Part shown: piece after piece, positions 31,761 to 41,730 of the stretch
How positions within the stretch are numbered: the stretch's first letter is position 1
Layout: each line of letters opens with the position of its first letter
Origin: Marinifilaceae bacterium
GTDB lineage: Bacteria > Bacteroidota > Bacteroidia > Bacteroidales > Marinifilaceae
Reading direction: 5' to 3'
Length of the DNA: 64,000 nucleotides
Assembly: GCA_041846495.1 (NCBI GenBank)
Contig: JBGZEX010000075.1
Coordinates: 1,238-65,237 of the forward strand
Notes under the pieces: model-generated
The model's input: the letters and a program-made list of their open reading frames with translations, nothing else
What the model was told of the DNA's origin: nothing
Database searches by the model: none
Program-made: the position numbers and the translations under genes

Positions 31761-31833
<73 letters not shown>

Positions 31834-37597: not shown

Positions 37598-38590
37598 TTA
37601 GAGGAAATTTTTTTCGTGAAGATATTCCGCTATCTGCACGGCATTGGTTGCGGCACCTTTTCGGAGGTTGTCGCTTACGATCCACATATTTACGGCATTC
37701 TTCCGGGAATAGTCTTTCCGGATTCTGCCTACGAATACTTCGTTTTTATTTTGGGCGTTTAGGGGCATGGGGTACTTAGCGGCGGCCGGTTCGTCTTCTA
37801 CGGTTATTCCGGGCGTCGCTTTCAGTAAATCGATTACGGCATTTACGGAGACCTCCCGCGAGAATTCGATATTGACGGATTCCGAATGTCCCCCTGTTAC
37901 GGGAACTCTTACGGCAGTGGCCGTAATCATGAGCGAGGCGTCGTTGAGGATTTTCCCCGTTTCGTTTATGATTTTCATTTCTTCTTTGGTATAGCCGTTT
38001 TCGAGAAAATCGTCGCATTGGGGAATACAGTTCATGTCTATGGGGTAGGGATAGGCTTTTTCGCCGATATATCCCCGGCGCTCGTTTTCCAATTGTCGGA
38101 TTGCTTTCATTCCCGTCCCGGTTACGGACTGGTAGGTGGAGACGACGATTCTTTTTATGCCGAAAGCCCGGTGGAGCGGAGCTATAACCATGACTAACTG
38201 TATGGTAGAGCAATTGGGATTTGCAATAATCTTATCCGTTTTTCGAATGAGAGAGGCATTTATTTCCGGTACGATTAATTTTTTTGAAGGATCCATTCTC
38301 CATGCGGAAGAATTATCTATGACCGTACATCCTGTGCCTGCAAATTCGGGGGCCCATTTTACGGAAACATCCGAACCTGCCGAAAACAGGGCCAGGTTGG
38401 GGCGTTTTGAAAGAGCCGCTGCACAGTCTTCTATACCGATATCTTCTCCGTTGAATTTTACGATATTTCCCAAGGAACGTTTGCTGGCTACGGGTATTAG
38501 CGTGCGAACGGGAAATTGCCGTTCTTTCAGGATTTCGATTATTTTTTGTCCTACGACGCCGGTGGCTCCGATAACTGCTAATTTATACAT
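37598..38590 (-). CDS. asd: Aspartate-semialdehyde dehydrogenase
   Basis: GATGVVGQ and active-site NPNCSTI. Start at MYKLAVIG (ATG 38590), because a -7 promoter element lies inside the longer ORF. Confidence 0.92.
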   Translation of the reverse strand: MYKLAVIGATGVVGQKIIEILKERQFPVRTLIPVASKRSLGNIVKFNGEDIGIEDCAAALSKRPNLALFSAGSDVSVKWAPEFAGTGCTVIDNSSAWRMDPSKKLIVPEINASLIRKTDKIIANPNCSTIQLVMVIAPLHRAFGIKRIVVSTYQSVTGTGMKAIRQLENERRGYIGEKAYPYPIDMNCIPQCDDFLENGYTKEEMKIINETGKILNDASLMITATAVRVPVTGGHSESVNIEFSREVSVNAVIDLLKATPGITVEDEPAAAKYPMPLNAQNKNEVFVGRIRKDYSRKNAVNMWIVSDNLRKGAATNAVQIAEYLHEKNFL

Positions 38591-38622: not shown

Positions 38623-38773
38623 GAGTTTAATTGATAAGATTTTTTTGGAAACGATGTTTTTATTCGGTTCGAAAAGGGAGATTATGCGAGGGGAGCGGAA
38701 TTTATATCCGGTAATATTATGCAATGGGTTAAAACAGCACGTATTTTGCTGTAATATATGAAAAACGGTTTTT

Positions 38774-39295
38774 ATGATGTTTATCAGATATTGGTTTGTT
38801 TGTTTTTTGGGGATATTTGCTGCTTTCCCCTGTTTTTCTCAAATCGGAAATTCCGTTGATTCCGTCCTTTTGTACGATGAGTTCGGAAAACCCGTACAAT
38901 TACCGTTGATAGGAGAGAAGAAATTGTTGCTGTTTTATTTTGATCCCGATCATCCCGGACAAAATAGGAGATTGGTGGATTATTTGATGGGTGAAAATAT
39001 GGATTCTTCGGATATGGGTTGTTATGCCGTAGTGAATCTTTACGATGCCCCGCTTTTATCCAAAGCGCTTTTGGAAGAAGTGGTTTACGGGGAAGTGGGA
39101 AGACTCGGAATAAAAGTTTATTACGATCCCGCCAATATATTGAGTACGAATTGGAAGTTGGGAGATGTCAATAATAAGTTCGTCGTGATCTTTGTTAATA
39201 AAGAAAAATTTATAGAGTTTTATTATACGGGGGAATTGGACGAAGCCTCATTTGACGGATTGATTCGTTTGATGGGTATTTATAAAAAAGAGTGA
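38774..39295 (+). CDS. Secreted small protein, tentatively YtfJ-like / thioredoxin-fold
   Basis: 173 aa. Signal peptide ..FPCFSQ. Loose by-eye resemblance to periplasmic YtfJ in layout (..KKLLLFYF.., ..FVVIFVNKE..). The family call is weak. Confidence 0.45.
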   Translation: MMFIRYWFVCFLGIFAAFPCFSQIGNSVDSVLLYDEFGKPVQLPLIGEKKLLLFYFDPDHPGQNRRLVDYLMGENMDSSDMGCYAVVNLYDAPLLSKALLEEVVYGEVGRLGIKVYYDPANILSTNWKLGDVNNKFVVIFVNKEKFIEFYYTGELDEASFDGLIRLMGIYKKE

Positions 39296-39342
39296 ACAAA
39301 ATTATTCGTAGTTACAGCGATTTTTGTTCACTCTCGATTTTT
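39284..39342. terminator. Bidirectional intrinsic terminator (12-bp stem)
   Basis: gagtgaacaaaa (39290-39301) pairs with ttttgttcactc (39322-39333). On the minus strand it is followed by an uninterrupted TTTTTT (39289-39284), and on the plus strand by tcgattttt. Confidence 0.7.
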
Positions 39343-39413
39343 AGGATAATTAAAGGTGAAAACAGTTTGCAAGCCTGTAATCCCTGTGCTTTTATCCCGA
39401 AAGCAGGTAATTG

Positions 39414-39587
39414 AATATCCGGCAGGTCTTCTGACTTATTCCTGAAGAATGCGCCTTCCCGTTTTTAATCCGAAACAGTGGCATAATGCATTCTTTTTTC
39501 GGAAGTTACAGCAGCGGGTACTGTACGGGATTTTCACCCGTTTCCCTTTTCATTTATGCATTTTTGTGCGAATAAACACCGGATATT
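39414..39587 (-). promoter_or_regulatory. Cobalamin (B12) riboswitch aptamer
   Basis: On the minus strand: P1 AATATCCGG/CCGGATATT, GGGAAACGGGTGAAAATCCCGTACAGTACCCGCTGCTGTAA, GCCACTG, GGGAAGGC, and B12 box AGTCAGAAGACCTGCC. Confidence 0.85.
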
Positions 39588-39591
39588 ATTG

Positions 39592-39599
39592 CAAATGTA
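39592..39599 (-). promoter_or_regulatory. Bacteroidota -7 promoter element (TAnnTTTG) for the riboswitch transcript
   Basis: The minus strand reads tacatttg and ends 4 nt before the first P1 base. Confidence 0.5.
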
Positions 39600-39649
39600 C
39601 GTTCTTTATTTATCAATAACAATAGTAGAACTCGAAAATATGGAAAAAC

Positions 39650-41473
39650 TTATTCTTCCGTATTCGTTTTGGATTTTTCCATTCTTTTACGTTGGTTTTC
39701 GTCGAGGATGATTTTTCGCAATCTCATGGATTTCGGACAAACCTCCACATATTCGTCTTCCTGTATGTATTCCAAAGCTTCCTCCAAACTGAATATGACG
39801 GGAGGGGCGATATTGGTTTTTTCGTCGGAACCGCTGGCCCGCATATTGGTTAATTTTTTGGATTTGCATACATTGATTACGATGTCTTCCGAACGGGTGC
39901 TTTCCCCGATGACTTGGCCCGCATATACCTCTTCTCCCGGAGCGATAAAGAATTTTCCCCTGTCTTGGAGTTTATTGATGGCATAGGCATAGGCTTGTCC
40001 GGTTTCCATTGCAATAAGAGAACCGTTGGTACGCATTTCTATTTCGCCCTTATAGGGTTCGAATTCTTTGAATCTGTGAGATAAAATAGCTTCGCCTCCG
40101 GAGATTGTAAGCAGAGATGCGCGGAGCCCGATAATACCTCTCGAGGGAATTTCGAAGTTCATAACGGTGCGTTCGTTCCTGTTCTCCATATTCAGCAGGA
40201 CGCCCTTGCGTTTTGTCACCATCTCGATGGCTTTGCCGGAATATTCGTCCGGAATATCTATGCTCAACTCCTCTACGGGTTCGTGTTTTTTGCCCTCGAT
40301 TTCTTTTATAATGACTTTGGGCTGACCTACTTGAAGTTCATAACCCTCGCGCCGCATGGTTTCGATGAGTACGCTTAAGTGGAGCACGCCTCGTCCGTAT
40401 ACGATAAAGGAATCGGCGCTTTCGCCCGGACTTACCCTTAGGGCGAGGTTTTTTTCCAATTCTTTCTCCAAACGTTCCTTAATGTGTCTGGAGGTTACGA
40501 ATTTTCCTTCTTTCCCGAAGAAGGGAGAATTGTTTATGGTAAACAGCATGCTCATCGTAGGTTCGTCGATGGCGATGGGGGTAAGAGCTTCCGGATTTTG
40601 AAAATCGGCAATCGTATCTCCTATTTCAAAACCGTCGATGCCGACGATTGCGCAGATTTCTCCCGAATGCACTTCTTCGACTTTGGTTTTTTCCAATCCT
40701 TCGAACAGCATCAATTCTTTGATGCGTTTCTTCTCCACGGTTTTCCCGTCTCTTTTGCACAGGGTTACGGCCATGCCGGAATTCAATGTCCCCCGGGAAA
40801 GTTTGCCTACGGCAATACGCCCTATATAAGGAGAATATTCCAAAGAGGTAATAAGCATTTGAGGTGTTCCGGCTCCCGTTTGCGGAGCGGGGATGTTTTC
40901 GATTATCGTATCCAAGAGTACCGTGATATCGGTTGTGGGTTTTCGCCAATCGAGAGACATCCAGCCTTGTTTTGCACTTCCGTATACGGTCTTGAAATTC
41001 AATTGGTCTTCATCGGCTCCTAAGGAATACATGAGTTCGAATACTTCTTCCTGTACCTCGTCCGGCCGGCAATTCGGCTTATCCACTTTGTTGATGACGA
41101 CGATTGCTTTTTTGCCCAATCCCAAAGCTTTCTGAAGTACGAAGCGGGTTTGCGGCATCGTGCCCTCGAAGGCATCCACTAAGAGAAGTACTCCGTCCGC
41201 CATATTTAAAACCCGTTCCACCTCCCCTCCGAAGTCCGAGTGTCCGGGAGTATCTATAATGTTGATTTTGTAGCCGTTGTATCTTACGGATACGTTTTTG
41301 GATAAAATGGTGATTCCCCTTTCCCGTTCGAGGTCGTTATTGTCCAAAATAAGTTCTTTCCCCTGTTTTTCGTTTTCTCTGAAAAGTTTGCCTTGAAGAA
41401 TCATCTTGTCGACTATGGTCGTTTTCCCGTGGTCGACGTGCGCGATGATGGCGATGTTCCTAAGTTTTTGCAT
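39650..41473 (-). CDS. typA: Translational GTPase TypA/BipA
   Basis: 607 aa. [29 protein letters not shown]-like domains. Confidence 0.95.
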
Positions 41474-41659: not shown

Positions 41660-41730
41660 AGGTCGGTAGCAGATTTGAACTGCTGTACGCGGTTTTGCAG
41701 ACCGCTGCCTAACCACTCGGCCAACCGACC
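41660..41730 (-). tRNA. tRNA-Cys (anticodon GCA)
   Basis: Manual cloverleaf GGTCGGT..GCGGT-CTGCAAA-ACCGC..AGCAG-TTCAAAT-CTGCT-ACCGACC-T. Confidence 0.9.

Follow-up and report, generated by a model that had tools for sequence, protein, structure and literature searches.

A riboswitch that leads into no gene raises the question of what it regulates, if anything. We examined this question for a cobalamin (vitamin B12) riboswitch on the minus strand of a 64,000-nucleotide stretch of DNA from a Marinifilaceae bacterium (GenBank assembly GCA_041846495.1, contig JBGZEX010000075.1); this whole stretch is referred to as the window, and coordinates are those of the window unless another locus is named. 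An earlier note, made from the sequence of the window, had described a gene-less riboswitch with its own promoter and terminator that runs antisense into a gene for a secreted protein. Based on the sequence comparisons described below, the element is most likely a complete, independently transcribed non-coding cobalamin-riboswitch RNA of approximately 300 nt, with a predicted transcript on the minus strand from about 39586 to 39289-39284.

The identity of the aptamer was established with the covariance model of Rfam family RF00174 (Cobalamin), a check that the earlier note had proposed. Infernal matched the model to positions 39598-39404 of the minus strand at 118.4 bits, far above the gathering score of 31.5 (E 4.5e-29), and the match covered model positions 1-189 of 189 and was not truncated. 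A scan of the whole 64-kb window with Rfam gave this one cobalamin match in total. The following elements were read off the sequence:

39404..39598, minus strand: aptamer, RF00174
39587-39579 with 39422-39414, minus strand: P1, AATATCCGG pairing with CCGGATATT
from 39546, minus strand: aptamer core, beginning GGGAAACGGGTGAAAATCCCG
39520-39515, minus strand: L5, UACCCG, within the aptamer
39436-39421, minus strand: B12 box, AGTCAGAAGACCTGCC

The full set of core elements that had been recognized earlier was recovered, each at its position, and the conserved RF00174 core is complete, with the closing P1, the GGUGAAAAUCC loop (L4), a CCC-containing L5, GCCACUG, and the B12 box AGUCAGAAGACCUGCC. 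By each sequence criterion tested the element belongs to RF00174 and is a genuine cobalamin riboswitch, for which corrinoid binding is predicted.

Downstream of the aptamer lie two annotated features, the first of them convergent with the riboswitch:

38774..39295, plus strand: ytfJ-like gene, encoding a secreted protein of 173 aa that has a signal peptide and a thioredoxin fold but no CxxC motif
from TTG 38617 (mechanical open reading frame) or ATG 38590, minus strand: asd

The ATG at 38590, which is the start used in the earlier note, is the more plausible start of asd because a TATATTTG box lies just upstream of it. The element does not have the makeup of an mRNA leader, there being no open reading frame (ORF) on the riboswitch strand before the terminator. 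Between the aptamer and asd the longest minus-strand ORFs are of 56, 38 and 29 aa, all of them antisense to or beyond the plus-strand gene; the earlier statement that no minus-strand ORF of at least 60 aa lies in this interval is thus correct. The genes annotated around the riboswitch include hflX, obg, rsgA, yceD, fabH, kdsB, frr, a TonB gene, a two-component system, a sulfate permease gene and envelope genes; all are of housekeeping or general types, and no B12-related gene was present in the annotated region of approximately 24.5-54 kb of the window (about 15 kb on each side of the riboswitch).

To place the element in a comparative context, loci encoding ytfJ-like homologues were taken from assemblies, from a set of one genome per species, and from metagenomes; individual loci are given L numbers. 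Every homologue of at least about 42% identity had an RF00174 match on the opposite strand, located 108-225 nt past its stop codon and scoring 105.9-118.4 bits (105.9-116.6 bits for the homologous aptamers in L009, L010, L013, L015-L021, L027, L030 and L061). Homologues of 23-38% identity, from Alistipes, Rikenellaceae and loci in which the gene is the first of a ytfJ-Omp85-sulfatase operon, had no riboswitch. The carriers are Odoribacter laneus YIT 12061, O. lunatus DSM 112344, uncultured Odoribacter genomes and metagenome-assembled genomes (MAGs), gut-metagenome contigs, a further lineage represented by L061, and the lineage of the window itself. Thirteen distinct RNA sequences were found, each of about 300 nt, and the RNA is convergent with the ytfJ-like gene in all thirteen. 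When the window is compared with Odoribacter, the aptamer is 65% identical, the expression platform 50% and the ytfJ-like coding sequence (CDS) 54-57%. A compensatory change is present in P1, which reads AUAUCCGG/CCGGAUAU in the window and GUAUUUGG/CCAAAUAC in Odoribacter.

The outer flanks of the pair formed by the RNA and the ytfJ-like gene are variable. In L009/L027 typA is separated from the RNA by five genes, and other DNA occupies this side in L016, L010 and L061. On the far side, genes for an Omp85 protein and a sulfatase lie between the ytfJ-like gene and asd in Odoribacter, not in the window. Insertions and deletions are thus found on both outer sides, and never between the RNA and the ytfJ-like gene. 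The far flank bears on whether the riboswitch could belong to a very long leader and control minus-strand genes past the ytfJ-like gene, these being the Omp85 and sulfatase genes in Odoribacter and asd in the window. The minus-strand order in L010 and L011 is riboswitch, (antisense ytfJ-like gene), Omp85, sulfatase, asd, with gaps of about 30 nt among the last three, and the ytfJ-like, Omp85 and sulfatase genes make up one operon in other taxa. However, a strong terminator and a full convergent gene of more than 600 nt stand between the riboswitch and these candidates, the RNA has been retained at the window locus where the Omp85 and sulfatase genes are not found, asd of the window has its own TATATTTG box directly upstream, and in L009 plus-strand genes lie between the sulfatase gene and asd. 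We consider such a leader very unlikely.

The upstream boundary of the RNA is marked by a candidate promoter, adjacent in the window to the gene typA:

39592..39599, minus strand: Bacteroidetes-type -7 box TACATTTG (TAnnTTTG), with a predicted start at about 39586, in the first P1 bases
41473-39650, minus strand: typA/bipA, the gene directly upstream of the riboswitch

All nine aligned variants (alignment A2, 9/9) have the TAnnTTTG box unchanged and at one and the same distance from P1. L061 and the three remaining variants also have it there, and it was found in this place in all 12 upstream regions inspected, L061 among them. Farther 5' of the box the DNA could not be aligned, the 26% identity between the window and Odoribacter being at the random level. 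The -7 element that the earlier note had placed at P1 is thus invariant across the aligned variants, and we infer promoter activity for it. Clear intrinsic terminators are present 5' of the riboswitch promoter in L009/L027, L061, L019, L016 and L017. These upstream terminators and the invariant box indicate that the RNA is an independent transcription unit in most lineages.

A different relationship to the upstream gene has to be considered where typA lies directly 5' of the RNA, as it does in the window, L017, L018, L020 and L021. The typA stop codon is 30-50 nt before the -7 box in the window (39600-39652, minus strand), L018 and L020, and no convincing terminator was found between the two in these three loci. 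The window has only a weak hairpin, located over the typA stop codon, so that read-through from typA into the riboswitch, ending at the riboswitch terminator, is possible there. The aptamer could accordingly be a 3'-untranslated-region element, in which transcription from typA would continue across the riboswitch as far as the riboswitch terminator and the aptamer would tune 3'-end formation or stability of the typA mRNA. This reading is hard to reconcile with the invariant -7 box, with the other upstream genes of L009/L027, L016 and L061, which are set off from the RNA by strong terminators, or with the fact that the constant neighbour of the RNA is the ytfJ-like gene rather than typA, and we regard it as highly improbable.

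The expression platform downstream of the aptamer contains four elements:

39388..39404, minus strand: P13 hairpin, GCUUU-CGGGAUA-AAAGC, whose loop CGGG is complementary to CCCG in L5 (candidate kissing loop)
39354..39385, minus strand: HP2, an extended hairpin (ACAG/CUGU plus GGGAU/UC.ACC) with apical loop GCUUGCAAA, containing TTTTCACC
39336..39353, minus strand: segment 2, UUAAUUAUCCUAAAAAUC, the 3' strand of helix B, pairing with both strands and the loop of P13 (UUU.GGGAUAA with UUAUCCU.AAA)
39284..39335, minus strand: intrinsic terminator, with core stem 39333-39322 with 39301-39290 and U6 at 39289-39284

The hairpin and TTTTTT tract that had been taken for a terminator are present, and the stem covaries: in the 13 variants taken together, both sides of 8 of the 10 pairs are changed, and 95% of cells pair. 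On the minus strand the window terminator folds at -17.0 kcal/mol (z -4.6, none of 200 shuffles as good), the stem being of 14 bp if the A-U and G-U pairs at 39335/39334 are included; a simple terminator scan misses the hairpin only because its loop is longer than 8 nt. Across the variants the terminators fold at -17.5 to -25 kcal/mol, and in thermodynamic predictions they form beside helix B in every full-length variant. The plus-strand complement folds at -18.0 kcal/mol (z -4.3) and is followed by CGAUUUUU. Since the hairpin folds on both strands and CGAUUUUU follows the plus-strand copy, it can end both convergent transcripts in the window. As had been noted earlier, the stop codon of the plus-strand gene lies inside the hairpin, the TGA at 39293-39295 being within its 3' arm. 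The octamer CUGUAACU in the terminator loop (39317-39310, minus strand) is invariant in 13 of 13 variants although the stem is fully turned over; CTGTAACT of the loop is likewise invariant, in a whole loop of 16-20 nt. The motif GCUGUAA is also found in the 5' strand of aptamer P6.

P13 is unchanged as GCTTTCGGGAyAAAAGC in alignments A2 and A3, its five pairs are kept in 13 of 13 variants (alignment A7), and its loop CGGG and the CCCG of L5 are both invariant in the 13 variants. Folded alone, P13 reaches -3.8 kcal/mol, a weakness consistent with the expectation that this hairpin needs the kissing loop. An L5-L13 kissing loop is predicted on the basis of this complementarity and of a published L5-L13 model (PMC10653944). 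Helix B, which is mutually exclusive with P13, was present in both the minimum free energy (MFE) and the centroid structures of the window platform. The duplex of segment 1 with segment 2 that corresponds to it was calculated at -7.7 to -11.2 kcal/mol (z -2.2 to -3.6) in 9 of 9 variants tested. The sequence of helix B is GGGAUAA with UUAUCC in the window, and UUUCGGG with CCCGAAA plus AAAA with UUUU in Odoribacter; the window helix is in another register and of another sequence, so the pairing has been kept and the sequence has not.

Six representative variants (z -1.0 to -2.6) all form HP2 with one topology and with stems of differing sequence. In a model-fitted alignment 4 of its 10 pairs are changed on both sides, and the loop motif C(C/U)UGC is retained in all variants while the stem sequence is clade-specific. 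In a covariance-model alignment of the whole platform, 88.8% of cells pair and double changes occur at 12 pairs, values that none of 500 shuffles equalled, and slid controls had 46-63% of cells paired; because the alignment is fitted to the model, it somewhat favours structure. A platform model trained without L061 recovered L061 at 79.5 bits, and it gave no match in the riboswitch-free loci. RNAalifold run on MAFFT alignments recovered P13 and the terminator and did not recover HP2, because its loop lengths differ, a difficulty that the covariance-model alignment resolved. A permissive scan of 39240-39420 for other Rfam families gave only chance-level matches, far below gathering scores.

Two other candidates in the platform were rejected. 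The earlier note had suggested a ligand-sensitive pairing of TTTTCACC (39362-39355) with GGTGAAAA of the aptamer core. The complementarity exists in the window, but TTTTCACC is the 3' arm of HP2 and its complementarity to L4 is absent in every other variant, so the proposed pairing does not stand as the switch. A conserved small ORF or leader peptide was not supported either, since frames and start codons differ between clades. A 12-codon ORF (MSAFGIKAKDHI) that begins 5 nt before P13, spans P13 and ends in HP2 is found only in the L010/L016/L018/L020/L021 clade, where L021 starts it with TTG, and a stop codon or another frame is seen in the remaining clades; in the L009 platform there is no ORF of at least 8 codons, the UUG being directly followed by UAG. 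From the sequence comparisons, the conserved switch is that between the P13 kissing-loop hairpin and an alternative helix formed with the segment just 5' of the terminator.

Pairing partners of the terminator 5' arm were also compared across the variants. A four-segment 'ON' attenuator (P13-segment 2, segment 2-terminator 5' arm, terminator) was rejected, its segment 2 duplexes reaching only -1.4 to -7.2 kcal/mol; pairing of segment 2 with the terminator 5' arm was no better than that of shuffles, and cognate pairs were no better than non-cognate pairs. The 5' strand of P1 pairs with the terminator 5' arm at -10.7 to -14.1 kcal/mol in L010, L016, L018, L020 and L021 (3-7% of shuffles equal) and at -8.8 kcal/mol in L061 (0.8% of shuffles equal); this pairing is absent in the window and weak in the L009 and L015 types. 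The 5' strand of P13 pairs with the terminator 5' arm at -9.1 kcal/mol in the window (GCUUUCG with CGAGAGU) and at about -10 kcal/mol in L009, L015, L019 and L027 (7-14% of shuffles equal), and this second pairing is absent in the clade with the P1-based pairing. In every lineage, then, the terminator 5' arm pairs in some way with a strand that B12 binding would lock away, the partner not being conserved and each case being marginally significant. The partner of the 5' arm in nascent-RNA MFE structures likewise differs by clade.

The conservation of promoter box, aptamer and platform allowed us to weigh the two alternatives left by the earlier note, a relic of a rearrangement and a gene-less regulatory RNA. 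As a relic, the riboswitch would be decaying after loss of the gene that it regulated, a transporter gene or similar, and the lack of a downstream gene and of any B12-related gene within about 15 kb on each side is what this history would leave. However, the aptamer scores 105.9-118.4 bits in every lineage, and the promoter box, P13, HP2 and the terminator are all kept and carry compensatory changes. Conservation of the platform matches that of the adjoining CDS, and DNA upstream is at the random level. The earlier note had also specified what simple gene loss would predict, a B12-related CDS directly downstream in relatives; no relative that was compared has one. The neighbouring protein is just 42-47% identical among the carriers, which are therefore not one recent clone, and conservation of the whole unit across species at this distance refutes the relic, which we regard as extremely improbable. 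The gene-less regulatory RNA is the best reading of the element.

The nature of the convergent gene was examined next to the RNA. The secreted-protein gene facing the RNA is a real gene, with 297 homologues, and the databases call it from the second ATG, giving 172 aa (P0001) in place of the 173-aa ORF. Homologues in Odoribacter, Alistipes and Rikenellaceae carry the NCBI name 'YtfJ family protein'. The window protein itself gave no direct match to PF09695 or TIGR01626 even at E 1-10, and its homologues P0003 and P0037 scored a borderline 23.6 and 27.1 bits with PF09695 (Pfam cut-off 24) and 22.1 and 18.4 bits with TIGR01626 (cut-off 151.1); the name ytfJ-like is used on the basis of this transitive homology. 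An AlphaFold (AF2) model of the window protein had a pLDDT of 77, and the best folds in the PDB were TlpA/ResA-type thioredoxin-like domains (E ~4e-8), with an invariant FYxDPDxP at the CxxC position. The fold search gave generic TlpA/ResA folds only and no corrinoid-binding relative. The ytfJ-like genes are almost always found beside genes for Omp85-family (PF01103) and sulfatase/EptA-like (PF00884) proteins (L009, L010, L014, L060, L062 and L064), and an envelope function is therefore indicated. These partners are divergent in Odoribacter and in one operon in L062, and L064 has the sulfatase gene only; the window lineage has lost or moved them at this locus. In one Rikenellaceae MAG a SAM-II riboswitch (RF01726, 62.4 bits) is located at 3616-3675 of L023 on the minus strand, about 2.3 kb from the ytfJ-like gene of that genome.

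The region 5' of the ytfJ-like gene has a conserved block of its own:

38736..38754, plus strand: 19-nt block AGCACGTATTTTGCTGTAA, 20-38 nt 5' of the ytfJ-like start, with an AGCA..TGCT inverted repeat over a near -7 box

This block is identical at 19 of 19 positions in the window, L016, L018, L021 and L030, and is found at position 5840 of L016, 5857 of L018, 5848 of L021, 5910 of L009, 5925 of L010 and 5888 of L019. It is present within 3 mismatches in the riboswitch-bearing loci that cover the upstream region, the L060/L061 lineage excepted, and in none of 37 loci without the riboswitch. Given the inverted repeat and the near -7 box, the block probably serves the ytfJ-like gene as promoter or operator. 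GCTGTAA occurs in it on the plus strand and in the invariant terminator loop on the opposite strand; as RNA, its CUGUAA would match the loop of the riboswitch RNA letter for letter and be complementary to the terminator loop of the plus strand. On the minus strand, positions 38732-38757 of the window read ACAGCA-AAAUACG-UGCUGU followed by UUUU, a weak terminator-like hairpin that would halt antisense read-through just beyond the start codon of the ytfJ-like gene; only the window has the U-run. In Odoribacter a further block, TTACGGCAATAATGATGCCAATGTTT, is conserved at the 5' end of the ytfJ-like gene (5895-5920 of L016, plus strand, and the same place in L009, L010, L015 and L017-L021). A GGCA/UGCC hairpin that encloses AUGAUG can form in it, and some genes have been called from this point (MMPMF...); the window copy of the gene is without the block. 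Its role may be to control translation, or it may just encode the real N-terminus.

We tentatively favour the explanation that the element is a B12-responsive non-coding RNA that would act on the convergent ytfJ-like gene in an AspocR-like manner, a reading to which we give a little less than even weight. B12 would bind the aptamer, and the L5-L13 kissing loop would then lock the weak P13 hairpin. Without B12 the P13 strands would instead pair with the segment just 5' of the terminator to form helix B. This switch would set the fate of the 3' domain of the RNA, which overlaps the 3' end of the ytfJ-like transcription unit. Two sub-mechanisms can be envisaged within this explanation. In the somewhat likelier one, a long antisense RNA would extend across the ytfJ-like gene without B12 and a short RNA would be made with B12; by this read-through logic, which is that of AspocR, expression of the ytfJ-like gene would rise with B12. 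In the somewhat less likely one, termination would be constant and B12 would gate pairing of the 3' domain with the 3' end of the ytfJ-like mRNA.

AspocR of Listeria monocytogenes is an antisense RNA to pocR controlled by a B12 riboswitch (Mellin et al. 2013, as summarised in PMC8079631). In both systems a non-coding transcript opposes a protein-coding gene, is made from a promoter of its own and begins with a cobalamin riboswitch, and an intrinsic terminator after the aptamer gives a short form of about 230-300 nt. They differ in several respects. The present element is from Bacteroidota and AspocR from Firmicutes; PocR controls B12-dependent propanediol use, whereas the ytfJ-like partner has no known B12 link. 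The terminator of the present element lies at the 3' end of the partner gene and is apparently shared with it, and an extra conserved hairpin and an invariant terminator loop are found here. Finally, no conserved antiterminator was found in the present element, for which B12-dependent read-through is a prediction only.

Several points weigh against action on the ytfJ-like gene by such a mechanism. No antiterminator with a conserved position was found across the variants. The gain to the terminator 5' arm from alternative partners was -1.3 to -8.4 kcal/mol, shuffled arms did as well in 10 of 12 variants in an MFE-difference test, and the gain is small beside the -17.5 to -25 kcal/mol of the terminator stems, so that the terminator could indeed be constitutive. 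The switch between P13 and helix B does not overlap the terminator stem. The structural models thus make ligand-controlled termination plausible and leave constitutive termination a serious alternative. In addition, the octamer CUGUAACU and the conserved HP2 loop are not required for a pure read-through antisense mechanism, and they may point to a partner that recognizes a specific sequence. Part of the linkage to the ytfJ-like gene could be inherited synteny, the whole region from asd to typA being syntenic, and neither the fold search nor a literature search found a link of YtfJ-like proteins to B12.

The difference from a conventional switch can be seen by comparison with the metE riboswitch of P. 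megaterium, a cobalamin leader with an L5-L13/P13/terminator platform (PMC10653944). That riboswitch and the present element share the aptamer family, a P13 loop complementary to L5, competition of P13 with an alternative helix, and a downstream intrinsic terminator (PMC10653944). The alternative partner of P13 in the metE riboswitch is the terminator 5' arm, giving an antiterminator (PMC10653944), whereas here the conserved partner is a segment just 5' of the terminator and the stem is left intact. Unlike the metE riboswitch, the element has no ORF after it, and about 65 nt including HP2 lie between P13 and the terminator.

The same observations are accounted for if the RNA is a terminated, stand-alone B12-sensing small RNA (sRNA) that acts in trans or titrates a protein or RNA partner, the adjacency to the ytfJ-like gene being inherited synteny. 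B12 would then toggle P13 and helix B and so change the presentation of segment 2, the HP2 loop and the terminator loop. The RNA has the form of a discrete unit, with its own promoter box, a strong terminator (-17.5 to -25 kcal/mol) and, at many loci, an upstream terminator. The lack of a convincing antiterminator and a P13/helix B switch that leaves the terminator untouched fit an sRNA of this kind, and an invariant 8-nt terminator loop and a conserved HP2 loop in fully turned-over stems are typical of loop-presented recognition sites. However, segment 2, the only part with clearly changing accessibility, differs in sequence between the window and Odoribacter, which speaks against its being a seed for action in trans. 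Around the locus, a search of approximately 12-64 kb per genome gave no site complementary to the loops, the loop itself being the sole conserved GTTACAG site, and RNAduplex comparison of the platform with the ytfJ-like 5' region gave only uninformative long interrupted duplexes. Nor would action in trans explain why no insertion is found between the RNA and the ytfJ-like gene. On balance we consider an sRNA acting in trans somewhat less likely than action on the ytfJ-like gene, and a close rival to it.

Precedents for riboswitch-containing RNAs with a function of their own are found in EutX/Rli55 and in SreA/SreB. EutX of Enterococcus faecalis and Rli55 of Listeria are sRNAs that contain a B12 riboswitch and sequester the ANTAR regulator EutV; the ANTAR substrate is a tandem of hairpins whose two hexaloops carry A in position 1 and G in position 4. 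Like these RNAs, the present element is a gene-less cobalamin riboswitch in a small RNA whose function would lie in hairpins outside the aptamer. However, in EutX/Rli55 the ANTAR-binding hairpins follow the riboswitch terminator and disappear on B12 binding, whereas the conserved hairpins of the present RNA are upstream of its sole terminator. The HP2 loops are CCUGCA, CCUGCCAU or GCUUGCAAA, and neither these nor the terminator loop fit the ANTAR pattern; no eut or ANTAR gene was found in the annotated 24-36.5 kb and 39.6-54 kb of the window. Judged from its sequence, the element does not fit the EutX/Rli55 design. SreA and SreB of Listeria are terminated S-adenosylmethionine (SAM) riboswitch transcripts that act in trans on prfA, and they resemble the present element in being terminated riboswitch RNAs with a proposed regulatory role of their own. 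Unlike the present RNA, which has no downstream gene, they are leaders of downstream operons.

A further possibility combines constant termination with an action at the shared 3' end. The RNA would be constitutively made and terminated, and B12 would expose or hide the segment beside the shared terminator hairpin, deciding whether the sRNA invades the 3'-terminal hairpin of the ytfJ-like mRNA, with CUGUAACU serving as a kissing or protein-recognition site. The 3' end of the ytfJ-like mRNA, with its U-tail, is complementary to segment 2, whose A-run is the complement of the U-tail of the plus-strand terminator. We consider this possibility rather improbable. If true, a ligand-gated 3'-end antisense RNA would be a mode of riboswitch output that has not been described so far.

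Apart from the features discussed above, two tRNA genes were detected on the minus strand of the window, at 31761-31833 (66.9 bits) and at 41660-41730 (62.0 bits). The latter gene is located between typA and folB, an arrangement shared by the related loci L001 and L002.

B12 and other corrinoids are central nutrients of the gut, both shared and contested. In the literature found, the B12 riboswitches of Bacteroidota are leaders of transport or metabolic genes, and the full-text literature searched held no description of a gene-less B12 riboswitch RNA of the kind reported here. If regulatory, the RNA would be the first riboswitch-driven regulatory RNA that we found described for Bacteroidota, AspocR, EutX/Rli55 and SreA all being from Firmicutes. 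Because the element is present in named Odoribacter species (O. laneus YIT 12061 and O. lunatus DSM 112344), the prediction should be directly testable. The invariant terminator loop and a switch that spares the terminator may reveal another way of coupling ligand to output, and action of the RNA on the ytfJ-like gene would tie B12 sensing to an envelope-protein gene without an obvious B12 function.

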